From positions 1-64,000 of the IMG/VR virus record IMGVR_UViG_3300037313_001751: 64,000 nucleotides of DNA. One strand, 5' to 3'. Below the pieces are notes generated by a model. That model did no database searches. It was given only the letters and a program-made list of their open reading frames with translations, and had not been told where the DNA came from. Source of the stretch: a virus. Its lineage: Duplodnaviria > Heunggongvirae > Uroviricota > Caudoviricetes. Shown here one piece after another: positions 174 through 16,887 of the stretch. A program made the position numbers and the translations under genes. Every line of letters begins with the position of its first letter. Within the stretch, counting starts at the first letter, position 1.

Positions 174-258
174 GGGAGGGGGCGAGGTTCGAACTCGCGC
201 TTGAGGACCCACTATCTCGTTAGCAACGAGACCCCCTTCACCGCTTGGGCACCTCTCC
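174..258 (-). tRNA. tRNA-Ser (anticodon GCU), type II with long variable arm
   Basis: Minus-strand cloverleaf: acceptor GGAGAGG/CCCCTCC (one mismatch), D-region TG-CCCAAGCGGTGAAGGG, anticodon stem TCTCG/CGAGA with loop TTGCTAA, T arm GCGAG-TTCGAAC-CTCGC; no encoded CCA. Confidence 0.65.
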
Positions 259-267
259 TTGGGCCTT

Positions 268-531
268 CTACCTTGTTGTTAATACAATTGCATAGCTGAA
301 AAATGCGAGAGAGAAGCATCCTAGAATAAGAAGCAGCAAAAAATTAATGATGAGGCTAGCAATCATAAACGAGCGCTGCCGCCTAAATTGATCCTTTTCC
401 GTTTCAACTATCTTATCGGCAACTAGATGATTTGATGACTCGACAACATTCGCAATTTTCTCACTTGAATCGTGGATCGCTGTTGTGATTTCTTTTACGC
501 CCTGCGGTTGAACCACTTCTGGATCCAGCAT
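268..531 (-). CDS. small hydrophobic protein, C-terminal transmembrane segment
   Basis: 87-aa ORF between two tRNAs; C-terminus MIASLIINFLLLLILGCFSLAFF is TM-like. Confidence 0.35.
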   Translation of the reverse strand: MLDPEVVQPQGVKEITTAIHDSSEKIANVVESSNHLVADKIVETEKDQFRRQRSFMIASLIINFLLLLILGCFSLAFFSYAIVLTTR

Positions 532-550
532 GTCCGGTCCTCAAATTAAA

Positions 551-625
551 TGGAGAAGGGGGTCGGACTTGCACCGACATAGAACAGCTTTGCAGGCTGG
601 CGCATATCTACTCTGCCACCCCTTC
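551..625 (-). tRNA. tRNA-Cys (anticodon GCA)
   Basis: Acceptor GAAGGGG/CCCCTTC perfect 7 bp, anticodon loop CTGCAAA, T arm GTCGG-TGCAAGT-CCGAC, 3' CCA encoded; ORF-track entries 530..808 and 541..798 overlap it and are spurious. Confidence 0.65.
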
Positions 626-653
626 GGATTTTTATTTAGTAGGAGCAATCTAG

Positions 654-724
654 TAGCCGGTACTGGAGTTGAACCAATATTAGCGAGGTCAAAGCTCGCC
701 GTCCTACCGTTGGACGAACCGGCC
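654..724 (-). tRNA. tRNA-Gln (anticodon UUG)
   Basis: Acceptor GGCCGGT/ACCGGCT, D arm GTCC-AACGGTA-GGAC, anticodon stem GCGAG/CTCGC with loop CTTTGAC, T loop TTCAACT; 71 nt, no CCA. Confidence 0.7.
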
Positions 725-879
725 TTAATTGTGTGGTTGTTCTTGCACCTCTGGCGCATCAGTCTTGTAAGATTACCATTTGTAAATTGCATCATCATGA
801 GCGACTAACCAATATCGGCCGCCTAGCAATAAACATAAGAGACATCCATACTGAAAAGAAGTTTACTTCTTACATGCAG

Positions 880-1155
880 TTAGTGCCCTTTTCTCTCCTT
901 GTTTAGCGCACCGATCAACTCCCACAAGCCATTAACTTCTTCTGTAAGTCTGGCTATTTGCTGCTCTAGTAGAGGTATTTTAGCAACTTCATCTCTGAGC
1001 TTTTGGTTGTCGCCAGCTAGCACCTGCGCATGCTTTTGCGCCTTTTTTGCACGTGCATAGGGGTTGGTTGCCCAATTAACCTTCGGTTTTCGGGGTTCAG
1101 GTCTTGGACCCTTAACAACGGGGGCCTTGGTAAAGATGTTGCTCGCCATCCTCAT
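880..1155 (-). CDS. hypothetical basic coiled-coil protein
   Basis: 91-aa ORF; N-terminus lysine/arginine-rich, C-terminus heptad-like (LEQQIARLTEEVNGLWELIGAL). Confidence 0.4.
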   Translation of the reverse strand: MRMASNIFTKAPVVKGPRPEPRKPKVNWATNPYARAKKAQKHAQVLAGDNQKLRDEVAKIPLLEQQIARLTEEVNGLWELIGALNKERKGH

Positions 1156-1333
1156 ATGTTAGCAGTTCCTGTAGTTTCAGCACAAACGTCAAATGCAGGC
1201 AGGCAACCCACTTATCCTGGTAATAACAAACCTAAATATCTTTCCTTTAAACTTTTCTTGTAGCAAACTCACGCGGCAGCCAAACGTTTAACCAGCGTGC
1301 GTGGTGCACACAAAGGTTATGTAGGAGTTTGCA

Positions 1334-1708
1334 ATGCCAGAGCGGAAGAATATTAACGACGCAACCAGAGAGGATATCGCCGAGTTGCCGTTTATGAGCG
1401 ACACGCGGGCTGAAATGATCGTCCACTACAGAGAGGTTAACGGGCCCTATAAGCAGCAAAGAGACTTAGAAAAAGTTACTGGCATAAACGAGAGACTTGC
1501 GGCACGGGTAGCCGAGTATTTCGACATTTCTGAACCATCCGCTGACGAAAGCGAAGATCGTCCCAACAACAGGAGAGCACGTAGCTCAGATGAGGAGATC
1601 GATAAGGCGATTAAAGAGGATGAGGACGGCGAGGATGATGGCGACGAAGACGATGGCGGCAATCGCAGCGGTCGGGGTGGCCGGAAACGTGCCGCCGCTT
1701 CCAGGTAG
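1334..1708 (+). CDS. ComEA-like helix-hairpin-helix DNA-binding protein with acidic, RG-rich tail
   Basis: NINDATREDIAELPFMSDTRAEMIVHYREVNGPY...LEKVTGINERL matches the competence ComEA HhH pattern (VNINTA..EL..LPGIG..KA..II.YREENGPF...L..V.GIG); followed by a poly-D/E and RSGRGGRKR tail; terminator directly downstream. Confidence 0.55.
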   Translation: MPERKNINDATREDIAELPFMSDTRAEMIVHYREVNGPYKQQRDLEKVTGINERLAARVAEYFDISEPSADESEDRPNNRRARSSDEEIDKAIKEDEDGEDDGDEDDGGNRSGRGGRKRAAASR

Positions 1709-1718
1709 CTGAGGCAAA

Positions 1719-1750
1719 AATGGGAGGAGAAATCCTCCCATTTTTATTTT
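1719..1750 (+). terminator. rho-independent terminator
   Basis: GGGAGGAGAAATCCTCCC hairpin followed by TTTTTATTTTT. Confidence 0.6.
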
Positions 1751-1844
1751 TGGATCATACGGCAAATGACATGGTTGTCGAGCCAGGCAGGACACTAGCC
1801 CTGACGGGGCTGTGCAGCATGCCATTACGGGCTGTGTGAACAGC

Positions 1845-2312
1845 TCAGTTGCCTTTTTGCCTCTGGTTAAGCTCTACCTTGTCTTCTATCTTTTTCACAT
1901 ATCTTAATGTTAAGAACGTCACGACTGTTAAAAATGCTGCGACTGCGTAGTTACCAAATCCTGAAGCAACGCCGATCGCGCATGTAATCCAGATGCTGGC
2001 TGCAGTGGCGGTTCCTTTAACTGTCATCTTGTCTTTAAGTATTGCACCACCACCAATGAATCCGATACCAGCAATGATGCCTTGAACAACTCCTTGCATC
2101 ACACGGCTATATTCGGCTGTGCCTTCGGCAAATTCGGCACGTATTGCTATAACAAAGCCGCAAGATGCTACTGCAACTAACGGAAAAGTTCGTAGACCAG
2201 CGCTACGTTCAGATATTGCGCGATTCAGTCCAATTGGTAGAGCAAGAAAATAGGCAACAGCTAATTTCAGTATTTCGATCTTTAGTGCATCAAAATCAAA
2301 ATGCATTTCCAA
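1845..2312 (-). CDS. mgtC: MgtC/SapB family membrane protein
   Basis: 155 aa, multi-TM; GLNRAISERSAGLRTFPLVAVASCGFV...IVQGIIAGIGFIGGGAIL is the conserved MgtC N-terminal core. Confidence 0.65.
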   Translation of the reverse strand: MEMHFDFDALKIEILKLAVAYFLALPIGLNRAISERSAGLRTFPLVAVASCGFVIAIRAEFAEGTAEYSRVMQGVVQGIIAGIGFIGGGAILKDKMTVKGTATAASIWITCAIGVASGFGNYAVAAFLTVVTFLTLRYVKKIEDKVELNQRQKGN

Positions 2313-2330
2313 AACCTTAACCTACTCCGA

Positions 2331-2930
2331 TCACTTCCCAAGACTGTTTAACAAATGGTCTCTATTGTGCTGCTCAACCATTGCCCCGATTGCACAACCA
2401 TGCGCAAACGCTTTGTGGAAGGATTGTAGATGACCTGCGACTGTCTGCACATCGAGCTCATTAATACTGGAAGCAAACGCAGGGTAGTCGTTTGCCAGGC
2501 TTTGGAGCATAATTCTGACGTTACGCACCTCAACACTACCAAACGGTTCATCGAACAGAATGCGATAATACAACGCTGTAGGCGCCGGTCGATTGTTTGG
2601 CTTTAGTGTGATTATAGCAATGTCACGCAAGTAAGTTGACACTTCCTTACGCCAATGACTTATGTCAGGATTTGACGGCATTGCAAGGATTTTCAATAAA
2701 TGTGTGTTAAGCGGACGTTCAATACTAGTTATAACGCTTTCGGCCTTCTTGCGCGAAAACAACATCTCCAGCAGTGCGCCTTGTGCAAATTCCTTCAGCC
2801 GCATGCCGCAGTTCCCTAGACCCAGAAGTATAACGGGCCCTTCGGTAGGATCAACGTTAGCTTGGTAGCGAGGTCCCGGATTGAACGGGAAACTCCAGGG
2901 TATGAACCTAGCGAGATACCATTTCTCCAC
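2331..2930 (-). CDS. hypothetical protein
   Basis: 199-aa ORF co-directional with neighbours; no recognised motif. Confidence 0.45.
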   Translation of the reverse strand: MEKWYLARFIPWSFPFNPGPRYQANVDPTEGPVILLGLGNCGMRLKEFAQGALLEMLFSRKKAESVITSIERPLNTHLLKILAMPSNPDISHWRKEVSTYLRDIAIITLKPNNRPAPTALYYRILFDEPFGSVEVRNVRIMLQSLANDYPAFASSINELDVQTVAGHLQSFHKAFAHGCAIGAMVEQHNRDHLLNSLGK

Positions 2931-3102
2931 CGCGCACTCTATTTAGTCTTATATAAGTTTCTCCCATTTCACCCCATCCATTTGCTTGCAGTGCATTGAA
3001 GCATATGTCATTGCCTTCAATCGATGCCGCCTCCATATCACGTGAGTTCATGCACCATGGCCACACACTTTTACCACAGTACCTACAAGATTGGTGTGTC
3101 AT
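2908..3102 (-). CDS. small Cys-rich hypothetical protein
   Basis: 64 aa, CRYCGKSVWPWC; tandem with next small ORF. Confidence 0.25.
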   Translation of the reverse strand: MTHQSCRYCGKSVWPWCMNSRDMEAASIEGNDICFNALQANGWGEMGETYIRLNRVRGGEMVSR

Positions 3103-3103
3103 T

Positions 3104-3286
3104 TCACTCCTTAATTGCTACCAAAGATATAAGATGTTCACGCATCAGTTCCGACAAACTCTCCCAAGTCGGGCAGTGGTGTCCATCCGATGAACGCACA
3201 ACAGATTCATACTTTTCACGGGCAGCTTGCTCTCTGAACTGACGGTTACCGGCGTTTGTTATTCGAGATTGAATATGTTTGCACAT
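3104..3286 (-). CDS. small hypothetical protein
   Basis: 60-aa ORF in the same orientation as its neighbours. Confidence 0.25.
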   Translation of the reverse strand: MCKHIQSRITNAGNRQFREQAAREKYESVVRSSDGHHCPTWESLSELMREHLISLVAIKE

Positions 3287-3339
3287 CGGACTATAGCCTT
3301 CCCTACTAACAGTTGGATGCTATCTCTATTGGACTGCGC

Positions 3340-3603
3340 TCAGTGAATGGTTGGCCTTTCGATAGTCTCAATGCGACTAAGAAAGGCAATGTTTTTTGAT
3401 GCCATATCGCGTGCATTTTTGATTTCATCCACCTTTTCTTGTAGCTCGGTCACGTGCCTACAGATCGCGAGGGAAGTAACGCACGCTCCAATACCAATAC
3501 CCGATAAAAGTGAAAAGATTGGCTCGTCGAAAAATATGCACAAGCCACCATTGACAACACTCAGTATTAAGACCGCTATCGAAGCTAGTTTTAACTTTCG
3601 CAT
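3340..3603 (-). CDS. small membrane protein (two TM segments plus coiled-coil tail)
   Basis: LASIAVLILSVVNGGLCIFF and GIGIGACVTSLAI hydrophobic stretches; chosen over the fully overlapping plus-strand ORF, which does not look like a protein. Confidence 0.35.
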   Translation of the reverse strand: MRKLKLASIAVLILSVVNGGLCIFFDEPIFSLLSGIGIGACVTSLAICRHVTELQEKVDEIKNARDMASKNIAFLSRIETIERPTIH

Positions 3604-3609
3604 TTGACC

Positions 3610-4161
3610 CTACAACAAAATGGATTGGCGAGCATTTATCGAGGATTCAACAGCGTCAAGTCCCATTCGGATACCGCTTTCGTTTTCGAGCAACCATTCT
3701 GCATCGCGATGTTTCTCAATTCCGTTAAGCAAATTCACTAACTGGCCAATCATCTGTTGATCCCAGCGTATAAGCTGCTGAAGCGTTGCGGCCTCTTGTC
3801 TATAACGCTGTGTCATCCGGTCGGTGCTAGGGACTGGAAGGGCGCGTATCTTGCCCTCTAGTTGTGAGATCTTCCGCGATATCCGCTCTAGCGTGCGCGC
3901 ATTTTCAAGGGCTCTTTGGTCATAGGGATTGTCTTTTGTAGGTGGTGGCAGGTTCATGCGACGATATTCAGAGCCGACAGTCTCGAAATATCCTTTTGCA
4001 AGGCCGAGAAGATAGCTAGCTCTTGCCCTCACCTTCAGGTCATCTTGTCGTAACTGGTTTTCGACCTTATAAAAGTTATACCCCCAACCGTAAAAAGCCG
4101 TGATAGCTAATTGCTCAATGTAACTCGCATCGTAGAATCTAGAATATGACTCCTCGATCAT
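3610..4161 (-). CDS. hypothetical protein
   Basis: 183-aa ORF; compact operon with the downstream SPFH-like gene (12-bp gap). Confidence 0.5.
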   Translation of the reverse strand: MIEESYSRFYDASYIEQLAITAFYGWGYNFYKVENQLRQDDLKVRARASYLLGLAKGYFETVGSEYRRMNLPPPTKDNPYDQRALENARTLERISRKISQLEGKIRALPVPSTDRMTQRYRQEAATLQQLIRWDQQMIGQLVNLLNGIEKHRDAEWLLENESGIRMGLDAVESSINARQSILL

Positions 4162-4172
4162 CGTTGTCTCCG

Positions 4173-4997
4173 TTATATGCCGGTCTTGCCGTCGACTGGC
4201 ATTAGTGTATTACCACCAATATTGAAGGGCAAACCAGCCGCAGCATTTGGCGCTGATATTAAGCCTTTGTCAGCCATCATAAACGCAAGGTAAAACTGCG
4301 CTGCCTCCTTTGGCGTCAAGCCAAGTGCCTGTAGTGAAATTAGGCCGCGCATCCTGTCATCTTTTGGTACGACAAGGATTTTCAAGTCGTGTAGATGGAT
4401 TCCGTATTCTCTGAGGAACTCAGCTAGGTGGTTCTGAACGCCTTCGCGCAAGTCTGATATTCTCGAATTAATCTCCTCTAGTTTTGTTGTTTGAATTACC
4501 TGATTGATCGACTGTTCAATCGCTGGTCCAGCATAAGCGGCTACTTCTGACGTGTTGATTACCAGGCCGTCAAACGGCATATGTTGGACAAGTTGATTGG
4601 CATCCTCAGCGGTGTTGATCTGGATGTAATAGTCTGCTGTGTATCTAACCTCAGCCATTTCTGCCGTCGTTGCTGTGCCGACGTTTTGACACATAAGCTT
4701 GGACCGATTTACGAATACCACCTCGTAGACCCAAGGAGAATCGCCACCCCATGCAAATGCCCGCACGAAATTACCAACAACGGGTTTATCTTCTGTGATC
4801 AGCGTATACTGCCCCATTTCGTACGTCTGTAGTAGCACGCCGCGTTCACGGAATATAGCGAATTGGTTCGGCTCTACGGTAAGCAACGATCCTGATACAA
4901 CCGCATTGTCGGAGCGCTTTAGCGCAAGATTGGCCTTCCCTAACAGATCCTGGCCATCCTTGCCTGTGCAGGTTATTATTTGCCGTGAACTGGCCAT
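4173..4997 (-). CDS. SPFH/band-7 (stomatin/prohibitin-like) domain protein, tentative
   Basis: 274 aa; beta-rich N-region followed by a long helical region typical of SPFH proteins; assignment by overall pattern only. Confidence 0.45.
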   Translation of the reverse strand: MASSRQIITCTGKDGQDLLGKANLALKRSDNAVVSGSLLTVEPNQFAIFRERGVLLQTYEMGQYTLITEDKPVVGNFVRAFAWGGDSPWVYEVVFVNRSKLMCQNVGTATTAEMAEVRYTADYYIQINTAEDANQLVQHMPFDGLVINTSEVAAYAGPAIEQSINQVIQTTKLEEINSRISDLREGVQNHLAEFLREYGIHLHDLKILVVPKDDRMRGLISLQALGLTPKEAAQFYLAFMMADKGLISAPNAAAGLPFNIGGNTLMPVDGKTGI

Positions 4998-5070
4998 TTT
5001 GGTTTCCTCCTCGTATTATGCCAATGTAAAGCATCTCGCATAGCTGTCACGCTAAAATTTTATATCTGTG

Positions 5071-5727
5071 CTAACAATCGTAGCCTTCGATATTGCGTAA
5101 GCCAATTTCAGGGGCAGAAAGATAGGTATCAATATTAAGGACCTGGTAAAACATAGCCTCGTTATTCAATAGGAAGATGCGTATTTTCTCGTAGTCACCA
5201 AGCCACAAACCTCCGTCCTTCGTTCTGGCAAACTTTTTGTTAGCGCTATATGCAAGAAGTAGAGGTATCAAATCATCCCTAATTTGATTTATATTCCGGA
5301 GATTGACGCCGGTGCGCTCAATCCACATCGCAAGCGCTTGTAGACTAACGGTGACTATTGGCTGTGACACGGTCCCAGATTTTGGCGCGATCCGCACTTG
5401 CCATACGCCGACCGCATAATCGATGTCTTGGTTATCACGCCCCTTGTTTGGCACTGGCGCAATAAAATATTCGAGAAACAGGTATTTTTTGCGCTTCATT
5501 TCAACAGTTTGCTCAATGCTACAGCCATCATTTCTATAAGAACGCCATTCTTTTGCCAACTCAGCAAAACGCTCAGGCCGTAATGCATTAGACTTAGGGC
5601 TTATGGCGCGCTGCGTTTTTTGAATGACTAACGTCAGGCGTGAAACAGTCTGCTGTGTATGTTCGGTAAGATCAAACCAGAATTGCCTTGCTTGACCTAA
5701 ATATTCTCTCGGTATACTATTTGACAT
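5071..5727 (-). CDS. hypothetical protein
   Basis: 218-aa ORF. Confidence 0.5.
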   Translation of the reverse strand: MSNSIPREYLGQARQFWFDLTEHTQQTVSRLTLVIQKTQRAISPKSNALRPERFAELAKEWRSYRNDGCSIEQTVEMKRKKYLFLEYFIAPVPNKGRDNQDIDYAVGVWQVRIAPKSGTVSQPIVTVSLQALAMWIERTGVNLRNINQIRDDLIPLLLAYSANKKFARTKDGGLWLGDYEKIRIFLLNNEAMFYQVLNIDTYLSAPEIGLRNIEGYDC

Positions 5728-5867
5728 GCCAGCAATTTAACGGCTGCCCATGTGGTAAACAAGACGCTCTTCACTATTGACATCTTGAAATGGTGTCGAT
5801 GCGTCGCTTTAATCTGATGCCAGATTGCAAATAGGCTGCAGCGGCTCGTTCGTTCAGCGGCAGTTTT

Positions 5868-6245
5868 TTAACTGTCCACTTTCTGAAAAAAGCTGACAGT
5901 GTCGAGGATCCGTCGGCTGTTTGCCAAGGCTGTATAACTGCGTTCTAGCCGCTCCTCCAGCGCACATACCGCCTCACAACGTGCACGGGCGCTCCGACGC
6001 GCAGCATTGATAAGTTCTTCGCGGTAACGGTTCGCGGCTATCTTTATCTTGCTTGCTGGTTGGCTTGAAGATGAATAGACCATGTTTACACCTCGCCATA
6101 CCTCAAAGCTATCGTAGTGCTCCTTACAGCAATAATACCACACAAACGCGCCAACTTCCTGGGCGTTTCCGTCGTCGTGCGCGGAAAACCATTCACCTGC
6201 CCTAATATTACGACCGATCTTCAAATAGAAGCGGTAATTCTCCAT
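5868..6245 (-). CDS. hypothetical protein
   Basis: 125-aa ORF. Confidence 0.45.
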   Translation of the reverse strand: MENYRFYLKIGRNIRAGEWFSAHDDGNAQEVGAFVWYYCCKEHYDSFEVWRGVNMVYSSSSQPASKIKIAANRYREELINAARRSARARCEAVCALEERLERSYTALANSRRILDTVSFFQKVDS

Positions 6246-6355
6246 TGCTGTCTCCTGACTTCTATTTGATTGAAAAGAACACCACTTTCACATCAATGCA
6301 AGGGAAATGTGCCAGGATGTAACTATCGGTTACAATAGTTAATCTAATGTAGATA

Positions 6356-6444
6356 TTCCTGGCCGAGGATTCGAACCTCGCCTCCATTCAAATGGAGCCT
6401 TCCGATTAACAATCGGAGACCTTCACCAAGCCGGCCGGCCAGGA
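6356..6444 (-). tRNA. atypical long (type II-like) tRNA, identity ambiguous
   Basis: Perfect acceptor TCCTGGC/GCCAGGA, T arm CGAGG-TTCGAAT-CCTCG, D-loop TGGTGAAGG (Ser/Leu-like), then two consecutive anticodon-like hairpins: TCCGA-TTGTTAA-TCGGA (anticodon would be GUU) and CTCCA-TTTGAAT-TGGAG (would be UGA) within a 20-nt extra arm. Confidence 0.5.
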
Positions 6445-9691: not shown

Positions 9692-9738
9692 GTCTGCTGG
9701 AATACCTTTGTGTTCCATCCGCAGTTTCGATTGCTAAG

Positions 9739-10140: not shown

Positions 10141-10571
10141 TATCTGGTCCTCACGATCTTTTTAAATTTGTCTACCTCATCGTTATGGATGAGAACTGGT
10201 GCATATCGGTGGCCCATCTGGAAGGCAACATATAGCCGATGTCGGCCATTGCCGATCGATACAGGATGGTTTACGCGAGTTGGACTATCGTTGATCGACA
10301 CTTCAGCAGGATCCATATATCCACCGGACTTCCAATGTTCGGCAGCTCGTGGTATGCGCTTTCCAATCGCATTTTCGCCGCCTGTTGGATCATTTAAATC
10401 TAGCCGTGAATACCGATCTGTCAGCCTGAACATATCCTCGATATTAGCGTTGAGGATGGTGTATTCCGGATTTTTCTGATACCATTTGTTAGAAACACTT
10501 TTGTCTAGGTGTTGTCCAACAGCCCATCGAACATGATCGTCATCACGTTCATATATTTCAGCAAACCGCAT
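10140..10571 (-). CDS. ParB/sulfiredoxin-like nuclease-domain protein, tentative
   Basis: 143 aa; SIGNGRHRLYVAFQMG resembles the ParB N-terminal GxxRxxA motif. Confidence 0.4.
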   Translation of the reverse strand: MRFAEIYERDDDHVRWAVGQHLDKSVSNKWYQKNPEYTILNANIEDMFRLTDRYSRLDLNDPTGGENAIGKRIPRAAEHWKSGGYMDPAEVSINDSPTRVNHPVSIGNGRHRLYVAFQMGHRYAPVLIHNDEVDKFKKIVRTR

Positions 10572-10650
10572 CGCGCCTCCCGCAATTTATTCTTATATTT
10601 ACTGCAGGCGTTGGACGGTGTGCGCCTCGACGCAAAACTTACTAAATGTA

Positions 10651-10723
10651 TGACCTTGGCGGGACTTGAACCCAGCATTTTCCGCTTGAAAGGCGGCTCT
10701 CCGGACCTTTAGAGGACAAGGTC
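10651..10723 (-). tRNA. tRNA-Glu (anticodon UUC), probable
   Basis: Acceptor GACCTTG/CAAGGTC perfect, D arm CTCT-...-AGAG, anticodon loop CTTTCAA, T loop TTCAAGT. Confidence 0.6.
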
Positions 10724-10908
10724 ACAAATGTTAATCAGTAATCCACATCAACAATTGCCATGCGACTTGAATTCCTTTTTCAATTAGATCTAGATCTACA
10801 TGACGAACAAAGATTGCAACAACAAGAACGCCGACCAGAATTTGGACAACGGGATCTTTTACCGCACGGATAACAATCTCGCTAAGCACTACTACTCTCC
10901 TCGTTTGC

Positions 10909-11133
10909 TTACACTTTACGTTTGTGTTGACGGGACACGGTCAATTTGACAAAAATTGCCGCGACACCTACTATTTCAACACAACTTGCAAGAAACTGCA
11001 CTAACCAAGGATTATAGCCAATACTCATTGCGACTAAGCCAGCGATAGTAGGTATACAAAGGATGAGAATTAGGAGCTGCATATTGCGATCTTTGAACGC
11101 TGCGCGCAGCCCTGCATTCATCGCTGCCTCCAA
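10909..11133 (-). CDS. small membrane protein
   Basis: 74 aa with two hydrophobic helices. Confidence 0.3.
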   Translation of the reverse strand: MEAAMNAGLRAAFKDRNMQLLILILCIPTIAGLVAMSIGYNPWLVQFLASCVEIVGVAAIFVKLTVSRQHKRKV

Positions 11134-11136
11134 GAA

Positions 11137-11346
11137 CTACAGACGAAATGGATTGGTTAGAATTGTTATTGAGTGGCCACGTCTGCCACATTCCTTGCAC
11201 CGCAAAGGCAAATGTATCAACGGCGTATCTCCATGACCAGACTTTACCAGTGCTTCTAGATCAAGCTTAACATTATGGTCACAATATCTACAAGTCGCTA
11301 TTACGACATGGAGGTTGAGATATTGCCGCGGCGTTGGTAATTCCAT
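11137..11346 (-). CDS. small zinc-ribbon protein (CxxC...CxxC)
   Basis: C-terminal 70 aa of the 150-aa track ORF starting at MELPTP: CRYCDHNV...CKECGRRGH; the upstream part of that ORF conflicts with a better signal-peptide ORF. Confidence 0.35.
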   Translation of the reverse strand: MELPTPRQYLNLHVVIATCRYCDHNVKLDLEALVKSGHGDTPLIHLPLRCKECGRRGHSITILTNPFRL

Positions 11347-11350
11347 CACA

Positions 11351-11614
11351 CTACCTGCAACACCATCCATGACCGCAATAAAACCGACTGCCATACTCAC
11401 AACGCCAACGGTGTGGATACTCGCTGTAGCGATGTGGCGGCGGACGATAATACCCCGGAGGGGGTGGCGGAGGGTAGCCGGGATAGTAGTGGGGCCCATA
11501 GTAGGGTTGAGGTGGGGCATTATAGTAATCAGCGCTCGCGCCGTTCCAGGTAATGCCCGAAGCAAGTGCAGCAATAGCCAATGAACCAAAAACTCGTAAT
11601 AGCATTTTTACCAA
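11351..11614 (-). CDS. secreted Pro/Tyr-rich small protein
   Basis: Signal peptide MVKMLLRVFGSLAIAALASG, then YYNAPPQPYYGPHYYPGYPPPPPPGYY and C-terminal Cys cluster. Confidence 0.4.
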   Translation of the reverse strand: MVKMLLRVFGSLAIAALASGITWNGASADYYNAPPQPYYGPHYYPGYPPPPPPGYYRPPPHRYSEYPHRWRCEYGSRFYCGHGWCCR

Positions 11615-11747
11615 TCTCCTGTTACTAAACGCGATAACGCCAGTGAGCCAGATAAGTTACAGAAATATTTTGGCGCTTAAGGGGGTAACCAGACACCAAA
11701 ATGATGTGACCCAACTAGGTTTTCCAATCACCGTAATTTAATAAATG

Positions 11748-12314
11748 TTATAGTTTCACAAATTCCTGCCTAACCAGTTCGAAGGTTTTATACGTTTTGC
11801 CATCTTGCGTCCGGATAAAGACATCGGGATTCTCCTCAAGAAACAGTTTTAAAATTGTCATAGCTCTTACCACAGGTATCTCACTAGTGGATTCAACTGG
11901 GCGTGCCGAAACATCTGCTTGTTCATGCTCGCTTTCACTCACGTTGGCTGCCGTCATCGGGAATATCAGCAGTTCGTTATGTTCGCCACCACGTGTTGGT
12001 TCGCTAGTGAATGGGCTAAATGGCGTTTGTGGTGCGCCCTCGATACGTGACGCAGCAACCTGCAAATAGACCATAGTACGCGAGCCTTTAGTTTGTGCCG
12101 TAAACGCCGGACCCTCTGATTCTGTTCCTATATTCGGATCCTCGTCCTTACGCCGGAAAACAAGCCCTTCATGCCAAGAGCCATACAACGTCACATGATT
12201 ACCGACGATGTCGATTGACTTGAATACCTCCTGTACTTCACGTTGATTAAACGAGAATTTAATGGTAAACCTGTTGTTCGACCGGTAGCTGCTAACGCGC
12301 ATAACATCCTCCAT
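11748..12314 (-). CDS. hypothetical protein
   Basis: 188-aa ORF. Confidence 0.5.
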   Translation of the reverse strand: MEDVMRVSSYRSNNRFTIKFSFNQREVQEVFKSIDIVGNHVTLYGSWHEGLVFRRKDEDPNIGTESEGPAFTAQTKGSRTMVYLQVAASRIEGAPQTPFSPFTSEPTRGGEHNELLIFPMTAANVSESEHEQADVSARPVESTSEIPVVRAMTILKLFLEENPDVFIRTQDGKTYKTFELVRQEFVKL

Positions 12315-12518
12315 GTAGTTGCAAACTACATGGCAATATAGTTACGTCAAGTGCTGTAGCTATGCTGCTTGGAAGTTTCCACACCTTCCTCCGAGCCTTA
12401 AAAGGGCCCTTGTGCCCCAGGGATACCGATTGTCATGAACACAGTCCCTAAGCGACATAGCTTTGCGCCTTTATTGAAGCGCCGATCCTGTGGTTCGCAC
12501 TGACCGCCATGAATAGGC

Positions 12519-12869
12519 TCATTGTGTTGCTGGCGGCGATAGTTCGACATACGGGTCACACCTTCCATCTGTCACTGTGCCCGAAAACAAATTGCCAAAC
12601 AATGGCCGTGAAATATGACCTTTGAACGTGACGGTAGGGTTGTCACCCACGCTAGCTCCCTGTAGGTAACCATCAGCATCAACTGTTCCATTAATGCGGT
12701 AGCTATAAACGTAAAGGTTGAACCGGCCGTTGTAGACAACAGCAGTTATTGCTGAAGTACGGTTGCACTTGTCCTCCTTTGCAATTCCTGAATACCTACC
12801 ATCATAGTGCTCAGGCGGCAGCGTACCGCACGCTCCTAACGCAAGCACCAGCAACAAAGTATATCGCAT
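12519..12869 (-). CDS. lipoprotein
   Basis: MRYTLLLVLALGAC: signal peptide with lipobox (LGAC). Confidence 0.55.
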   Translation of the reverse strand: MRYTLLLVLALGACGTLPPEHYDGRYSGIAKEDKCNRTSAITAVVYNGRFNLYVYSYRINGTVDADGYLQGASVGDNPTVTFKGHISRPLFGNLFSGTVTDGRCDPYVELSPPATQ

Positions 12870-12950
12870 GTTTCATCCTAACGTGTGCATTAGTGCCCCT
12901 ATAACAGGTCTACAGCTTTAAAAACAACTTTTGCACTGCTATGATTAGCA

Positions 12951-13160
12951 ATGGACACAGATAGCGATAACGATGATTTACGAGCCAAACTGCATCCCTC
13001 GTTTGAACGGGTTGGACGACGGCGTCTAACTGAGGAGGAGTTGATTGATGTATACCAAAAGGCATACAATGATGCGTCCGACATTATCCATAAGGATGCT
13101 GCTGGCGCTAGGTTGGCCCAGTTGAAAAGCCTGTTTGCACGGCGTCCCAAACCTTTCTAG
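12951..13160 (+). CDS. small hypothetical protein
   Basis: 69-aa ORF, acidic N-terminus. Confidence 0.3.
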   Translation: MDTDSDNDDLRAKLHPSFERVGRRRLTEEELIDVYQKAYNDASDIIHKDAAGARLAQLKSLFARRPKPF

Positions 13161-13243
13161 GGATGAACTTCGGTGGAACGCCATATCCCTGTTTAAATAA
13201 CACAGATTTTCAAAATCACCAGATTGTCGTTCCTCCACATATG

Positions 13244-13319
13244 TGGTGCCCCCGACGAGATTCGAACTCCCAGCCTTAGGTTTAGAACACTTGCGCTCTA
13301 CCAATTGAGCTACGGAGGC
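13244..13319 (-). tRNA. tRNA, probably Arg (anticodon UCU); weak anticodon stem
   Basis: Acceptor GCCTCCG/CGGGGGC, D arm GCTC-AATTGGTA-GAGC, T loop TTCGAAT, encoded CCA; anticodon loop GTTCTAA but stem CAAGT/ACCTA pairs poorly. Confidence 0.55.
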
Positions 13320-13382
13320 TTATCATTGTCTTGACTACAGCTATGCCATACATATACTTAGTTGGTGACTAAGGAGGGTAAA

Positions 13383-13712
13383 GTGATCGATTTTAAACAA
13401 CCTGGGCGCACGCTTAGCACATCGAAAGCGATGTATCGCCGGACACATCCAGATCACAACATCGTATTTGGTGCTGTCTTGGCAAGTAAACAAGCAGGAC
13501 AAATCTGGCATGGCGATATAGACCTTGACGAGTCGTCCGACGCAGAAAGCCTGAAGTCTCTTGCAAGACGTCTTAACCAAGAGATTTATGTATTCAGAGC
13601 AATGGATGCGCGCTCAAGGCGCACTGATGAGATTAGCTGGGACCGTTTTGTCGTCGTTGTTCGGCCACGTGGTGACATTATTCCAAATGTCAGTGAGAAT
13701 TATTGTCAATAA
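13383..13712 (+). CDS. hypothetical protein
   Basis: ORF-track start is TTG at 13362; GTG at 13383 preceded by AAGGAGG at 13372-13378 is the likelier start. Confidence 0.45.
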   Translation: MIDFKQPGRTLSTSKAMYRRTHPDHNIVFGAVLASKQAGQIWHGDIDLDESSDAESLKSLARRLNQEIYVFRAMDARSRRTDEISWDRFVVVVRPRGDIIPNVSENYCQ

Positions 13713-14319
13713 TAAACGCGAGAATGCTTGCTGCCTTTTGCATATCCGCAAAGTAGTTTAAAGGATCACGGGCGTCGGTGCCTTCTGGCCAAAACACAAA
13801 AAGCGCCCCCAGGAAATTGTCGTCTCGCATGATTGGGCAGACGTCGAAGGCGCCAACACCCATACTATGCAAACGCTCGCGGCTAGAAGATTCTTGCTGA
13901 TCATCAACTAGCTGATAGCTACACTTGCCTTCCAACAACTGCGGCAAATAGGTTGACCAGTTGGTTATCGGAAGATTCTTCACGAGTGGTCCTGGACCAT
14001 TCTTAAAGGATCGGACGGACCGTGCCGCGATCACTGTCCAGGTAAAGTGCGGCAAAGTGTTTGCCACAGTTTCGTGTGAGGAGATGTTTGAGACACGAGC
14101 TACAACTGCGCCGTCAATATTTTTTAATGTGTTATCCAGTATCGATTCGATCAAATGCGATTTTTCTGCGTCGTCCCGGGAGAACAAATTGCCGTATAAA
14201 GAATAGGCTGGCTTATGTAATAAGCCGTGAATCGTGACGCTAATTGAAAACACAACAACCACTACGGGCAAGATTGTCCATGCAAGGACACGCTTGAGGA
14301 ATCTTGTCCTAAAGTCCAT
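13690..14319 (-). CDS. membrane-anchored hypothetical protein
   Basis: 209 aa; N-terminal TM WTILPVVVVVFSISVTI. Confidence 0.5.
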   Translation of the reverse strand: MDFRTRFLKRVLAWTILPVVVVVFSISVTIHGLLHKPAYSLYGNLFSRDDAEKSHLIESILDNTLKNIDGAVVARVSNISSHETVANTLPHFTWTVIAARSVRSFKNGPGPLVKNLPITNWSTYLPQLLEGKCSYQLVDDQQESSSRERLHSMGVGAFDVCPIMRDDNFLGALFVFWPEGTDARDPLNYFADMQKAASILAFIIDNNSH

Positions 14320-14584
14320 CTCATATCCAACTGACTGAAATAATAGTAGTAATTATCCATGCTTATTTCAATTTGGGGTGACTGGAGGTAATCGAAACCT
14401 CGCTAACACGGCCACATCGTGTCGTGCAAATCCACTACACTACAGTCACCATAACTTGGCTAAAGCAAATCCATGGTATGTTTTTGACAGGCAACCGCAC
14501 GGACTGCTGTTGGGGCTGCTGCATACATGCAAGCATCGCAAACGTTGTAGTTTTTCTACGCCGCATTGAGCGACTGGACCGCCT

Positions 14585-14953
14585 TCAGGCCAGCCCATCG
14601 TCGATCCGCTTAAGGGCTGCGTCTGTCAGCTCTTGTTTGATGTCGATTTGGTCGCCCGTATCTCGTATTTTGCGCAGGGTGTCGTCGATCTCCCCTAATA
14701 CACGGCCGAGTGTCTTCCCGGTCTGATCTGGTGCCGGGATGCGCATAGCAATGAGTTCCCACCGTTGCACGAACATTGGGACAAAATGGCCGCGAGGTTG
14801 CTGTTCAGTGCCCATGATGTGATCACCAACATCATATGCAGTATGGCCAAATCGTTGAGTTTGAAACGTGTAACGCTCCTGGTGGCTCACCGGCACATTA
14901 GCAAGCCATACTTCCCCCTCTTGTGCTTCGGGGTGCGGTAATCCATAAGGCAT
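14585..14953 (-). CDS. hypothetical protein
   Basis: 122-aa ORF. Confidence 0.45.
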   Translation of the reverse strand: MPYGLPHPEAQEGEVWLANVPVSHQERYTFQTQRFGHTAYDVGDHIMGTEQQPRGHFVPMFVQRWELIAMRIPAPDQTGKTLGRVLGEIDDTLRKIRDTGDQIDIKQELTDAALKRIDDGLA

Positions 14954-15229
14954 TGGACTGTCCTTTTATCATGCATCGCGAGCGTAGCATTGCGCTGTGG
15001 AAGGTCAACCTGACTAACCGTCAACATAGCCATAGGGAAAGTGCAACGTGTTGCTAGCCGTTGCTATCCAGCATACACCGTGCTATCGGCACGGTCCGAG
15101 CGGGAGCAGTTGGTCAAGTACGTTAATTTATCGATTACGTAAAAAGGACGCACCTGCGTTAAACAAAGTGTTGTCAGAACCATTTGCTAGCATCTAGGCC
15201 CGGTACCCATCCGCACATTTATTGCGTAA

Positions 15230-15595
15230 TTAGGAATACCAAGCGAAACGGCAACCAGGTGGACAAATAGACTCTGCCTGCGCACACGATTGGACGAATT
15301 GCTCAACTATTCGCCGCCTTTGTTCAATTTCAAGATCAGCAACGTTGTCGGGATAGATCCAACTGTATAATTCAGGCAGGGCGACAGCCTCGTCGTTTAT
15401 CAGAACAGTGTTCTGGTCCACGATGATATGCACACCGGTTATACCTGTGTCCTTTTCAAATTGGGCGTGCGATTCCCAGCCAGCCTCTGGTAACACTGCG
15501 TAGCTGTTGTCTTGCGTGAGCACAACGCGTTTCCTCATATCAAATCTCCTATTTCCTATGCAACAAAGCATAGCAAGACTTAACAGGCAAAACAA
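15230..15595 (-). CDS. hypothetical protein
   Basis: 121-aa ORF. Confidence 0.45.
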   Translation of the reverse strand: MFCLLSLAMLCCIGNRRFDMRKRVVLTQDNSYAVLPEAGWESHAQFEKDTGITGVHIIVDQNTVLINDEAVALPELYSWIYPDNVADLEIEQRRRIVEQFVQSCAQAESICPPGCRFAWYS

Positions 15596-15736
15596 GGATC
15601 GACTGGTGGACAGTTATCGGATGCTGGACTGCGCCGTTGCCAGCACAACGAACTGGATTGATTTTGCGAAGTCTTGGCGCCAGGCCATATCCGAATGTCG
15701 GAGTTTAAGCTATCATCTGAGGATGACAATGTAAAA

Positions 15737-15808
15737 TGGGCGGCGAAAGAATCGAACTTTCACCCCGGGTTTATGAGACCCACGCACTTACCAATGTGCT
15801 AGCCGCCC
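15737..15808 (-). tRNA. tRNA-Met/Ile2 (anticodon CAU)
   Basis: Acceptor GGGCGGC/GCCGCCC perfect, D arm GCAC-ATTGGTAA-GTGC, anticodon stem TGGGT/ACCCG with loop CTCATAA, T arm GAAAG-TTCGATT-CTTTC. Confidence 0.7.
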
Positions 15809-15832
15809 GCCTAACCTTGTATCCTTTTCCTC

Positions 15833-16027
15833 CTAGAATGCTATCATCGACCTTATAGTGTAGCTATATAAAACGGTCAACAAAAGCGCTATTATCAATC
15901 CTGCCATTATGCCAAACAGAAATTCGACACCTGACAGAAGCCTTTTATATCGCCTATATGCGAACCACCCAATAACGCAAGCTACGACAGCAAACAGTAC
16001 CTCAATGAGGAAGAAAGGGCCTAACAT
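15833..16027 (-). CDS. small membrane protein
   Basis: 64 aa, two hydrophobic helices. Confidence 0.3.
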   Translation of the reverse strand: MLGPFFLIEVLFAVVACVIGWFAYRRYKRLLSGVEFLFGIMAGLIIALLLTVLYSYTIRSMIAF

Positions 16028-16084
16028 CCGAACACCTTATGTTGCTTACGCATTATACGATGTTCAAATAGCTAAGCAAACGTC

Positions 16085-16327
16085 TTACCTAACAAATGGG
16101 CCTTTCTGTTGCTCCTTGGTGGCTTTTGCATCACCAGCTTGCGTACTAGTGTTACCTGGCAATACTGTAGTTCCGGTATCGCCAGGGACATGGCTTAGGC
16201 CTTTGTGCATGCCATCAGCTGACTCAAATTGTTCAGGTGGTACATTGCGGGGGTCTGTAGTGCTGACCTGAGCAAAGCCAACCAAAGGCACAAAATAAAG
16301 AGATATAACCAATAACCGGCCAAACAT
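16085..16327 (-). CDS. small secreted protein
   Basis: Signal peptide MFGRLLVISLYFVPLVGFAQ. Confidence 0.4.
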   Translation of the reverse strand: MFGRLLVISLYFVPLVGFAQVSTTDPRNVPPEQFESADGMHKGLSHVPGDTGTTVLPGNTSTQAGDAKATKEQQKGPFVR

Positions 16328-16372
16328 TAAAATACCTTTCTAAAATGGAGCGGCTCGAGGGATGCGAACTGC

Positions 16373-16600
16373 TTAAGCCCACCTGCGTCGCAACTCGTCC
16401 AGTTCAACACGATAGGACAAAGTCACCAAAGTGGCTGCTTCGTCTGCCGTATCAACTACGGTCTCGCTTACCGATAAAATGGCTCCTTGGCGTGCTTCAA
16501 TACTTTCCATTAATTTATTAATCTGCTCTTCCTTCATAGCACGCAGATCGCCAATTGATCCAATGTGTGGAAATGCTATTACTTTAACTCTAATTGCCAT
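16373..16600 (-). CDS. hypothetical protein
   Basis: 75-aa ORF. Confidence 0.4.
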   Translation of the reverse strand: MAIRVKVIAFPHIGSIGDLRAMKEEQINKLMESIEARQGAILSVSETVVDTADEAATLVTLSYRVELDELRRRWA

Positions 16601-16653
16601 TTAAAGTCCTTAAAAACATGGTCCATAACCGACGGCTTGGCTCCAGGAAACGA

Positions 16654-16729
16654 TGGCACCGGTGGGGAGCATCGACCTCCCAACCTGCGGGTTTGGAATC
16701 CGCTGCTCTACCAATTGAGCTACACCGGC
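16654..16729 (-). tRNA. tRNA-Trp (anticodon CCA)
   Basis: Acceptor GCCGGTG/CACCGGT, D arm GCTC-AATTGGTA-GAGC, anticodon loop TTCCAAA, encoded CCA; ORF-track entry 16610..16804 overlaps it and is spurious. Confidence 0.65.
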
Positions 16730-16809
16730 ATAATGTTTGGTTCTGGAGGTTAGCCGCGCGCTAACTCTTCGCTTAATGCCACCCATCGGTCGTAGGGTGT
16801 CCATTTGTT

Positions 16810-16887
16810 TGGTGCCCCCAGTGGGAGTTCAACCCACCTTTCTGCCTTGAGGGGGCAGCGTTCTCAGCGACCATAAACTATGGGGGC
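16810..16887 (-). tRNA. tRNA-like element with non-canonical loops (anticodon loop CCCUCAA: C33, nominal anticodon CUC)
   Basis: Perfect acceptor GCCCCCA/TGGGGGC with discriminator A and encoded CCA; D arm GTTT-(11 nt)-GAAC; anticodon stem CTGCC/GGCAG; T arm GTGGG-TTGAACT-CCCAC lacking the canonical C56. Confidence 0.4.

Follow-up and report, generated by a model that had tools for sequence, protein, structure and literature searches.

Does a phage that scatters transfer RNA (tRNA) genes among its other genes encode a working tRNA set of its own, and are the members of that set that depart from the usual tRNA structure functional variants or the remains of decayed genes? We addressed this question in a 64,000-nucleotide stretch of viral DNA (positions 1 to 64,000 of IMG/VR record IMGVR_UViG_3300037313_001751, Caudoviricetes; hereafter the window). 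An initial annotation, made from the sequence alone, had described between positions 174 and 16887 a dispersed phage-type set of eight or nine tRNA genes on the minus strand. We consider it highly probable that this locus is the tRNA gene region of a jumbo phage, in which 11 solid minus-strand tRNA genes stand among small open reading frames (ORFs) and homing endonucleases in a T5-like build, and that its two odd members, a class II-shaped tRNA with anticodon GUU and a variant of tRNA-Glu(CUC), are functional variants. The locus is of an ordinary kind, if divergent, and its two flagged oddities are real and better explained as recurrent phage variants than as products of decay.

Eleven tRNA genes on one strand

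ARAGORN was run on the whole window with default settings and in two relaxed runs (-ps95 and -ps85, the latter of which also yields obvious noise). The Rfam model RF00005 was applied at its gathering score of 29 bits and in a permissive run. The default ARAGORN run called ten tRNA genes, every one of them within the first 17 kb and on the minus strand; -ps95 added an eleventh locus, tRNA-Glu(UUC). Rfam gave ten RF00005 matches at gathering thresholds, to which the permissive run added tRNA-His; the tRNA(GUU) is a call of ARAGORN only. The eleven loci scored by RF00005 reached 38.2 to 64.4 bits, with E-values of 1e-11 to 2e-4. Such E-values, together with the placement of all genes on one strand, lie far beyond chance. 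The total is 11 solid tRNA genes within 174-16887, all on the minus strand, plus a marginal Pro-like tRNA outside that range and a possible tRNA remnant (Table 1). All loci fall within 19.4 kb, and nothing tRNA-like from ARAGORN or Rfam was accepted in the other ~44.6 kb of the window. Further ARAGORN calls at -ps85 (5775-5866, 20162-20255, 22030-22102 labelled 'Pyl/CUA', 45043-45123 and 59417-59508) were set aside as noise with poor stems. An Rfam YrlA match at 16677-16793 is weak (23 bits; gathering score 69) and was attributed to the tRNA-Trp that it overlaps.

Each of the nine loci listed in the initial annotation was recovered by ARAGORN, Rfam or both at its place on the minus strand. The count of eight or nine was too low: 11 genes lie in the range, those at 2863-2936 and 14374-14449 having been overlooked. 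The set comprises an initiator-like tRNA and elongators for Ser, Cys, Gln, Asn (of a type with anticodon GUU), Glu (two), Arg, His, Met or Ile2, Trp and possibly Pro. As had been noted, some genes encode CCA and some do not: CCA is encoded in seven (Cys, the initiator-like tRNA, Arg, His, Trp, Glu(CUC) and Pro-like) and absent in five (Ser, Gln, tRNA(GUU), Glu(UUC) and the second tRNA with anticodon CAU). It was also reasonable to treat the ORFs 530..808 (+), 541..798 (-) and 16610..16804 (-) as artefacts, since they cross tRNA genes and have no credible family match. The last of these, which runs over tRNA-Trp, gives a weak match to 14 residues of the 38-residue phrog_25131 that lies inside the tRNA; phrog_25131 may itself have been built from mis-called ORFs over tRNA genes. 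For annotation of the locus, the spurious ORFs can be removed and the overlooked tRNAs added.

Several identity marks fit real tRNAs. The tRNA-His is of bacterial type, with a GUG anticodon and an encoded G-1 opposite C73, and U73 in tRNA-Cys and G73 in tRNA-Trp point the same way, as do a 1x72 mismatch and A11-U24 in the tRNA(CAU) at 2863-2936 (CAU-a). Bacterial initiator tRNAs are marked by an unpaired 1:72 position, A11-U24 and three G-C pairs at 29-31:39-41. CAU-a has a U1xU72 mismatch, A11-U24, G30G31:C39C40 and A73, and so carries two of the three initiator G-C pairs, with A29-U41 in place of the third. It aligns best to the annotated T5 initiator (UGCGGG start, U1xU72) and to Escherichia coli tRNA-fMet. 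These features suggest that CAU-a is initiator-like, and we read it as the putative initiator tRNA of the phage. IF3 inspects the three initiator G-C pairs, and the window encodes a full-length IF3 homolog (28925-29440, minus strand; Pfam IF3_N 3e-21, IF3_C 6e-25) that adjoins a ClpX-like gene. The presence of IF3 along with an initiator-like tRNA that has two of the three G-C pairs suggests that the phage adjusts initiation as well as elongation. The second tRNA(CAU), CAU-b (15737-15808), is an elongator that may be of either Met or Ile2 (lysidine) type. Its alignments to the T5 and E. coli Met, fMet and Ile2 tRNAs were indecisive; an Ile2 tRNA would be useful, because ATA makes up 28% of the Ile codons of the phage.

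Other members show structural departures. The tRNA-Ser(GCU) has an A5xC68 mismatch and C as discriminator, tRNA-Gln(UUG) has G1.U72 and A73, and tRNA-Glu(UUC) has a bulged nucleotide in the T stem. Mismatches occur in the anticodon and T stems of tRNA-Arg(UCU). The T loop reads UGCAAGU (G55) in tRNA-Cys, whose D loop lacks GG, and GUCGAUG (G54) in tRNA-Trp. The Pro-like tRNA has G37, a U5xC68 mismatch, no G18G19 in its D loop and a non-canonical T loop (GGCAGAA) before its CCA; it is marginal, lies antisense to the 3' end of the plus-strand ORF 18494..19432, and was not called by ARAGORN at any threshold tried. Directly 5' of it, the possible remnant at 19384..19462 combines a perfect 7-bp acceptor stem (CGGAGUG/CACUCCG) followed by ACCA with a tRNA-like D arm, but its anticodon loop is irregular (6 or 8 nt), and it had no Rfam match at E<=5. 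The tail of the same ORF overlaps both elements. About 190 nt upstream of the Pro-like tRNA, at 19559-19591 (minus strand), a strong 14-bp hairpin with eight G-C pairs runs into a T-rich tail; no other site in the first 20 kb looks more like a terminator.

The surrounding DNA is that of a jumbo phage

By its hallmark genes, which occur throughout, the window is best identified as jumbo phage DNA. PHROGs profiles match both subunits of a topoisomerase II (phrog_543, E 1e-152; phrog_551, E 2e-127) and a virion structural protein (phrog_14154). Also encoded are a VapE-type primase/helicase, a ClpX-like ATPase, a large glycosyltransferase/methyltransferase, an HNH homing endonuclease, the IF3 homolog, a DnaB-like helicase with an intein, a PD-(D/E)XK nuclease and a lysozyme-like protein. 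Judged by topoisomerase II protein, Sinorhizobium phage Phosso (57% amino acid identity) and Agrobacterium phage Atu_ph07 (51%), with genomes of 469-490 kb, stand closest among deposited phages. Searches for closer relatives returned little. Megablast of positions 1-20000 against deposited phages matched only 41 nt of a tRNA-Trp, and a search of IMG/VR for related loci, with the permease described below and the topoisomerase as queries, found nothing. By tblastn, the primase/helicase adjoining the tRNA region had no homolog in Phosso or Atu_ph07. A second Joint Genome Institute (JGI) sample holds an identical copy (L082) of the region around the tRNA(GUU). The longest contig listed for the protein cluster is 77 kb, so only part of the phage genome is available.

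The tRNA genes therefore have to be weighed against the alternative that they belong to a bacterial chromosome, or to a host tRNA island borne by a prophage, and do not form a lytic phage's own set. Genes for an ATP-binding cassette (ABC) transporter, MgtC and an SPFH protein do stand among the tRNAs, and bacterial assemblies too contain dense tRNA arrays. Against this, structural and replication genes of phage type are found all along the window, and the tRNAs are scattered, as in T5, between ORFans and homing endonucleases. Among bacterial homologs of the ABC permease, the best reach only 41-48% identity, and those with names (Xanthobacter, Microvirga, Beijerinckiaceae) only ~41%. The Pfam and PHROGs scans, which took in most ORFs of at least 150 amino acids and some smaller ones in the tRNA region, showed no integrase. 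The chromosomal alternative is scarcely credible and already largely refuted: the tRNA genes stand in phage DNA and are co-oriented with their neighbours. The dispersed phage-type set of the initial annotation is confirmed in this respect, as is its attribution to a phage, neither a host chromosome nor host synteny having been found.

A probable tRNA-Glu(CUC) with C33 and G56

The element at 16810-16887 had been described as having a perfect acceptor stem with CCA, C33 in a CCCUCAA anticodon loop and a T loop that lacks C56, and this description is exact. More specifically, the acceptor stem of 7 bp (G1-C72) is followed by ACCA (A73), all four stems are perfect, the T loop reads UUGAACU (G56), and the D loop AUGGUCGCUGA offers G18-C19. 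U11-A24, U13.G22 and a variable loop of 4 nt complete the structure. Measured against the canonical tRNA core, it departs at two places, with C33 and G56 instead of U33 and G19:C56. The initial annotation had proposed a degenerate tRNA, a suppressor-like tRNA or a decoy.

The CCCUCAA loop, embedded in a tRNA-like spacing pattern, was searched in IMG/VR and in 185,579 species genomes. IMG/VR gave 14 pattern matches, 12 of which are distinct tRNA-Glu(CUC) genes by ARAGORN with otherwise unrelated sequences; these viral loci often hold 11 to 33 tRNAs. The species genomes gave 98 matches, including 23 tRNA-Glu(CUC) genes in bacterial and archaeal assemblies; no fewer than 12 of these 23 belong to arrays with 13 to 52 tRNAs per 8 kb. 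Such dense arrays are of the phage or mobile-element type and are not housekeeping genes. The same pattern with the canonical U33 was found at no fewer than 120 viral loci (at least that number). C33 is thus a minority state that recurs in the tRNA-Glu(CUC) of phages and arrays and accounts for no more than about a tenth of these genes. More broadly, a nucleotide other than U33 occurs in 34 of the 490 fetched phage tRNAs that had not been selected for it. C33 itself is present in about 7% of the phage tRNAs, and contigs L035, L117, L118 and L119 carry many C33 tRNAs of different isotypes.

The second departure was examined in 506 unique phage tRNAs. C56 is missing from 14 of these, and the D loop changes together with position 56: G56 occurs with UGC (3/3), U56 mostly with GA and A56 mostly with GU. 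This joint change indicates that the 19:56 elbow pair is kept by covariation. Under this rule the C19 candidate in the D loop of the Glu(CUC) tRNA matches its G56, so that the departure would be structurally compensated.

Determinants for charging are largely retained as well. The set recognised by bacterial glutamyl-tRNA synthetase (GluRS) consists of G1-C72, U2-A71, an augmented D helix, delta-47, U35, C36 and A37 (PMC9976931, Table 1). This set takes in tertiary elements, and the U11-A24, U13.G22 and 4-nt variable loop of the element agree with its augmented D helix and delta-47. The element also has G1-C72, U35, C36 and A37, and differs in C2-G71, in C34 (as do all CUC isoacceptors) and in C33. 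Stop codons are used in an ordinary way (TAA 19, TGA 12, TAG 10), and no suppressor is called for.

Could the element nevertheless be non-working, either a pseudogene in decay or a decoy that would titrate a host enzyme, be it a tRNA-targeting nuclease or one that modifies tRNA? Two near-universal positions are altered (U33 to C and C56 to G), and an HNH homing endonuclease lies directly upstream, in the kind of region that accumulates damaged tRNA genes. T5 has an annotated tRNA pseudogene and 'tRNA-like stable RNAs', and the more canonical tRNA-Glu(UUC) of the window could already read GAG by wobble. Random decay, however, would not be expected to leave four perfect stems, a retained CCA and GluRS-type features. 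The same C33 loop recurs in at least 35 unrelated tRNA-Glu(CUC) genes, G56 is matched by a C19 candidate in line with the 19:56 covariation across phage tRNAs, and a decoy role is not needed to explain the element. We regard a non-working element as unlikely. Most likely, 16810-16887 is to be read as a working variant of tRNA-Glu(CUC) and not as a pseudogene, suppressor or decoy; the readings first proposed for it lose ground to the recurrence of C33, the compensation of G56 by C19 and the preserved Glu identity features.

A class II-shaped tRNA with anticodon GUU

The type II tRNA that the initial annotation called atypical was borne out as a class II-shaped gene of 89 nt with a long variable arm and the anticodon GUU. 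It begins 1 nt downstream of the stop codon that ends the ABC permease ORF. Its acceptor stem (UCCUGGC/GCCAGGA, U1-A72) is a perfect 7 bp, with A73 and no CCA. A 3-bp D stem carries an 11-nt loop, a 5-bp anticodon stem carries the loop UUGUUAA, the variable arm forms a 6-bp stem with a 4-nt loop, and a 5-bp T stem carries the canonical loop UUCGAAU. The predicted fold has -43.8 kcal/mol (z = -3.8). RF00005 did not report the gene at E<=1 in a 22-kb search. Its best Rfam match is tRNA-Sec (RF01852, 31.3 bits, gathering score 47), a reading that we rejected because the score is below the gathering threshold and the anticodon is wrong.

The gene is not alone in its shape: a search of IMG/VR with a spacing pattern for such tRNAs yielded ten distinct tRNA(GUU) genes, 82-92 nt long and located on viral contigs unrelated to each other. 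Among these families is the annotated class II-shaped tRNA-Asn(GUU) of phiKZ (PHIKZ_t02) and ~24 of its relatives, with 84 nt plus CCA. The phiKZ gene shares with that of the window the GUU anticodon, U1-A72, the 3-bp D stem with its 11-nt loop, the stem-loop variable arm, the canonical T loop and a position next to an HNH endonuclease in a jumbo phage. The two differ at position 73 (G in phiKZ, A in the window), at position 8 (U and C, respectively) and at position 14 (A and G), and only the phiKZ gene encodes CCA; its variable stem measures 3 bp, against 6 bp in the window. We asked which amino acid the tRNA of the window would carry. Asn identity needs G73 (for asparaginyl-tRNA synthetase or the non-discriminating aspartyl-tRNA synthetase), and U1-A72 is a determinant for the GatCAB amidotransferase (PMC9976931). 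The tRNA has the GUU anticodon and U1-A72. It resembles class II tRNAs in its long arm and 3-bp D stem, and lacks several other marks of the Leu, Ser and Tyr tRNAs, having GUU as anticodon, U-A at 1:72, no A14 and no A15-U48. Nor does it have the build of allo-tRNAs or tRNA-Sec, which are marked by an 8/4 or 9/3 acceptor branch, a long D stem with tetraloop, a lengthened anticodon stem and G73 or U73 (PMC5389517), given its D arm of 3-4 bp with an 11-nt loop, its anticodon stem of 5 bp and its A73. Pairwise similarity to Tyr, Ser, Leu or Asn tRNAs was uninformative as to the origin of the long-arm tRNA(GUU) genes, with all values at 0.6-0.75.

Several observations weigh against our assignment of this gene as a functional Asn-type tRNA. 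It has A73 in place of G73. At positions where U8 and A14 hardly ever vary, it carries C8 and G14, a combination found in two of 413 tRNAs, one of which is this tRNA itself. The protein-database route led only to the identical copy in the second JGI sample and to one permease of 61% identity on a 1.6-kb contig, and this sole diverged relative is not followed by the tRNA. No diverged relatives of the two odd tRNAs were found in this way, which makes a covariation analysis of the window's own pair impossible. Exact search of the metagenome collection with a 22-mer of the tRNA(GUU) found no occurrence, and blastn of the GUU and Glu(CUC) tRNAs gave nothing useful, with no homology to the phiKZ tRNA-Asn detected. 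In the contig with the 61%-identical permease, the gene that follows (L084 1349-1573) encodes, instead of a tRNA, an Acb2/Tad1-hairpin protein of the anti-CBASS/Thoeris sponge fold.

The tRNA may also fold otherwise. If C8 pairs with G65, the acceptor grows to 8 bp and the T stem shrinks to 4 bp, as in the minimum-energy fold and the Rfam tRNA-Sec alignment; this 8/4 fold is possible, and the canonical 7/5 fold equally so. The competing explanation is that the tRNA is no Asn acceptor: it would be charged by the tyrosyl-, leucyl- or seryl-tRNA synthetase and miscode AAY, or form an 8/4 RNA without a role in translation. A73, G34 and U35 are exactly the listed bacterial Tyr determinants (PMC9976931) and come here with a long variable arm, A73 is also the key Leu determinant, and the G73 required for Asn identity is kept in nine of the 11 other long-arm tRNA(GUU) genes examined (judged by eye). 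A C8-G65 pair would explain the loss of U8 and A14, and tRNA-Sec is the best Rfam model. Precedents exist both for 8/4 tRNAs, in alpha-proteobacterial phages (Mukai et al. 2017, PMC5389517), and for miscoding class II tRNAs with mismatched anticodons (nev-tRNAs, PMC3333845; allo-tRNAs, PMC7609411). What speaks for Asn is that the gene starts with UCCU and has U1-A72, both Asn-like, where bacterial Tyr requires, and Ser conserves, the opposite, G1-C72. A15-U48 and A14, both needed for Leu identity, are absent, as are the G73/U73 and the long D stem with tetraloop of allo-tRNAs. Moreover, AAY makes up 4.9% of the phage codons, at which efficient miscoding would be costly, and the closely analogous tRNAs of phiKZ-like phages resemble normal Asn acceptors. 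We judge that a non-Asn role has a small chance of being correct. The tRNA(GUU) is most likely a poorly matched Asn acceptor, a putative functional variant of a recurring phage kind.

Long variable arms in other phages

Asn is not the only class I tRNA with this shape. A class II-shaped tRNA-Thr(UGU) of 87 nt, with a 3-bp D stem and a stem-loop variable arm, occurs in ~100 T5-like phages at 94-100% identity (for example Salmonella phage SP01, Table 1) and is usually annotated plainly as tRNA-Thr or left unannotated. T5 itself has an ordinary 75-nt Thr(UGU) outside this group, and a link of the long-arm Thr(UGU) to the PARIS experiments was set aside. Phage arrays in IMG/VR (loci L004-L081, e.g. 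L021, L057, L007, L012 and L066) contain other long class I tRNAs: Lys(UUU) of 83-92 nt, Met(CAU) of 85-87 nt, His(GUG) of 86-87 nt, Thr(UGU) of 84 nt and Trp of 82 nt, some of them on contigs of 300-480 kb. In an alignment of the long tRNAs, 14 of 27 pairs show compensatory changes, the variable stem included. Class II-shaped class I tRNAs are widespread in phages and are annotated without comment. Our literature search found no paper that discusses them, or C33 in tRNA-Glu(CUC).

The targets of AriB, the nuclease of PARIS, are Lys(UUU), Thr(UGU) and Asn(GUU) (PMC12409363). The long-arm set of Lys(UUU), Thr(UGU) and Asn(GUU) overlaps these targets, an overlap that may or may not be meaningful.

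One could go further and suppose that phages repeatedly reshape class I tRNAs, by long variable arms and D arms of class II type on Asn(GUU), Thr(UGU), Lys(UUU), Met and His tRNAs, by C33 and by 19:56 swaps, as a counter-defence that hides them from host enzymes sensitive to tRNA shape or loop sequence, such as AriB, or, for the tRNA(GUU) with its A73, C8, G14 and possible 8/4 fold, as a means of recoding AAY; the two odd tRNAs would then be members of an undescribed class. We hold this to be an improbable extension of the data. Should the changes be adaptive, they would bear on the debate over why phages carry tRNAs, for codon supply or for escape from tRNA-targeting immunity, and would provide concrete, testable tRNA variants.

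Codon usage and the purpose of the set

The GC content at third codon positions (GC3) of the phage is 0.46, and its preferred synonymous codons include CCA (relative synonymous codon usage 1.74), CAA, GAA and AGC. As a surrogate for a high-GC alpha-proteobacterial host we used 50 kb of Sinorhizobium meliloti pSymB, with a GC3 of about 0.8. Relative to this guessed host, the phage is enriched 11-fold in CCA, 4.3-fold in CAA, 4.0-fold in AGU, 3.7-fold in AUA and 2.8-fold in AAU. Taken by tRNA, the codons of Pro(UGG), Gln(UUG), Ser(GCU), Asn(GUU), Arg(UCU) and the putative Ile2 are enriched 2- to 11-fold.

We considered whether the set could serve purely for codon compensation, with an AT-richer phage supplying tRNAs for codons that are rare in a GC-rich host. 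The GC3 of the phage fits this idea, as do the CCA, CAA, GAA, AGA, AGY, AAY and possibly AUA codons, which are 1.5- to 11-fold above the high-GC surrogate. The codons of Trp, Met/fMet, His, Cys and Glu(CUC), by contrast, are not enriched (0.6- to 1.1-fold; GAG, read by Glu(CUC), 0.6-fold), and the most enriched codons (UUA, UCA, CUA, ACA and AAA) have no tRNA in the window, which is a partial genome. For the tRNAs carried by mycobacteriophages, published work detected no signal of codon usage (PMC10264068). The host, moreover, is a guess. Pure compensation seems doubtful to us. The codon compensation that the initial annotation proposed to look for is at best partial, judged against a surrogate host and on a partial genome: about half of the set fits the surrogate, and Glu(CUC), Trp, His, Cys and Met do not.

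The purpose of the set is probably mixed. The tRNAs would be transcribed together with the surrounding minus-strand genes, and their transcripts processed by host RNase P and RNase Z or by phage enzymes. A CCA-adding enzyme, of host or phage, would complete those without an encoded CCA, and host synthetases would charge them, giving the phage a decoding supply independent of the host pool. Part of this supply would act in codon compensation, at CCA, CAA, AGU, AAU and AGA, and at AUA if CAU-b is Ile2. The rest would keep translation running when host tRNAs are depleted or cleaved, a role proposed for phage tRNAs (PMC10264068; PMC12409363). The initiator-like tRNA, the IF3 homolog and the altered tRNA structures fit such a rationale of translation maintenance.

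Several points tell against a functional set that works in this way, beyond those given for the tRNA(GUU) and the unenriched or unserved codons. G55 in tRNA-Cys, G54 in tRNA-Trp, the Arg stems, the bulge in tRNA-Glu(UUC) and the T loop of the Pro-like tRNA mean that some genes may be weak or dead. Scans for promoters and terminators in the window performed no better than on shuffled sequence. The set is drawn from a partial genome and is incomplete in consequence. Finally, Rhizobiales belong to an alpha-proteobacterial group with an unusual tRNA-His, and the G-1:C73 tRNA-His of the window thus argues against a Rhizobiales-type surrogate and makes S. meliloti a doubtful choice. In that group tRNA-His has A73 and lacks G-1 (PMC5389517).

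Neighbouring genes

Coordinates of the tRNA genes and of neighbouring and other features are collected in Table 1.

Table 1. tRNA loci and other features of the window, with one comparison gene from another phage
Feature	Position	Strand	Evidence or remark
tRNA-Ser(GCU), class II, 85 nt	174..258	-	ARAGORN; Rfam 45.6 bits
tRNA-Cys(GCA)	551..625	-	ARAGORN; Rfam 50.7 bits
tRNA-Gln(UUG)	653..724	-	ARAGORN; Rfam 58.4 bits
Initiator-like tRNA(CAU), CAU-a	2863..2936	-	ARAGORN; Rfam 44.2 bits
Class II-shaped tRNA(GUU), 89 nt	6356..6444	-	ARAGORN (label Asn)
tRNA-Glu(UUC)	10651..10723	-	Rfam 44.2 bits; ARAGORN only at -ps95
tRNA-Arg(UCU)	13244..13319	-	ARAGORN; Rfam 53.0 bits
tRNA-His(GUG)	14374..14449, G-1 at 14450	-	ARAGORN; Rfam 50.5 bits
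Elongator tRNA(CAU), CAU-b	15737..15808	-	ARAGORN; Rfam 64.4 bits, best in the window
tRNA-Trp(CCA)	16654..16729	-	ARAGORN; Rfam 57.4 bits
tRNA-Glu(CUC) variant	16810..16887	-	ARAGORN; Rfam 49.4 bits
Pro(UGG)-like tRNA	19296..19367, with CCA 19293..19367	-	Rfam 38.2 bits
Possible tRNA remnant	19384..19462	-	ARAGORN only at -ps85
HNH homing-endonuclease ORF	16897..17226	-	phrog_374, E = 3e-17; directly upstream of tRNA-Glu(CUC)
Endonuclease-like ORF	18494..19432	+	phrog_22215, 2.6e-7; phrog_9019 (Holliday junction resolvase), 1.8e-4, amino acids 133-242
MgtC	1845-2312	-	Host-like metabolic gene among tRNAs
SPFH/Band 7 protein	4173-4997	-	Host-like gene among tRNAs
NitT/TauT-type ABC permease	6445-7170	-	Precedes the GUU tRNA
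NMT1-like binding protein	7164-8114	-	Partner of the ABC permease
1013-amino-acid methyltransferase and double GT2 glycosyltransferase, adjoining a 568-amino-acid double methyltransferase	34704-39455	-	
PAS and HATPase_c (histidine-kinase-like) protein	44717-45841	-	
VgrG3-C/GH46 lysozyme-like protein	47757-48677	-	
DnaB-like helicase with intein splicing domain	62935-63963	-	
Class II-shaped tRNA-Thr(UGU), 87 nt	L086 1473-1559		Salmonella phage SP01

No ATPase subunit of the ABC transporter was seen among the genes at 1845-8114. At 8208-9691, two plus-strand ORFs with weak Pfam matches of coiled-coil type form an island of opposite orientation within the minus-strand tRNA region, and AT and GC skew flip locally there.

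Comparison with known systems

The tRNA region of phage T5, at about 28-37 kb of record NC_005859, was inspected directly. All of its 24 tRNAs share a strand and stand alone or two to four together, with small ORFs and five HNH heg genes between them, as well as a tRNA pseudogene and several annotated 'tRNA-like stable RNAs'. The window shows the same features of a phage tRNA cluster: co-oriented tRNAs in a phage genome, single or paired, separated by small hypothetical ORFs and HNH homing endonucleases, together with an initiator-like tRNA with U1xU72 and degenerate or tRNA-like RNAs. The two differ in that they have no sequence relationship, in density (12 tRNAs in 19 kb in the window, 24 in 9 kb in T5) and in the metabolic-type genes (ABC transporter, MgtC, SPFH) interspersed in the window, which belongs to a jumbo phage of another lineage. 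Atu_ph07 and Phosso, jumbo phages of Rhizobiales, are nearest by topoisomerase II protein. They show no similarity at the DNA level, and the odd GUU and Glu(CUC) tRNAs have no blastn match in them.

Another comparison is with phage tRNAs that depart from cellular ones at conserved positions of the anticodon loop, changes that are proposed to let them evade the anticodon nucleases of the host (van den Berg et al. 2023, PMC10264068; PMC12409363). Neither of these papers discusses C33 or long variable arms, and no nuclease targeting tRNA-Glu(CUC) came up in the literature examined. Unlike the proposed escape variants, the tRNA(GUU) of the window keeps the U36-A-A-U-C motif associated with AriB cleavage. 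With allo-tRNAs, 8/4 tRNAs and nev-tRNAs (PMC5389517, PMC3333845) the tRNA(GUU) shares a long variable arm, an anticodon other than those of Leu, Ser and Tyr, and a possible 8/4 fold, whereas the long D stem with tetraloop, the 6-bp anticodon stem and the G73/U73 of allo-tRNAs are all absent from it.

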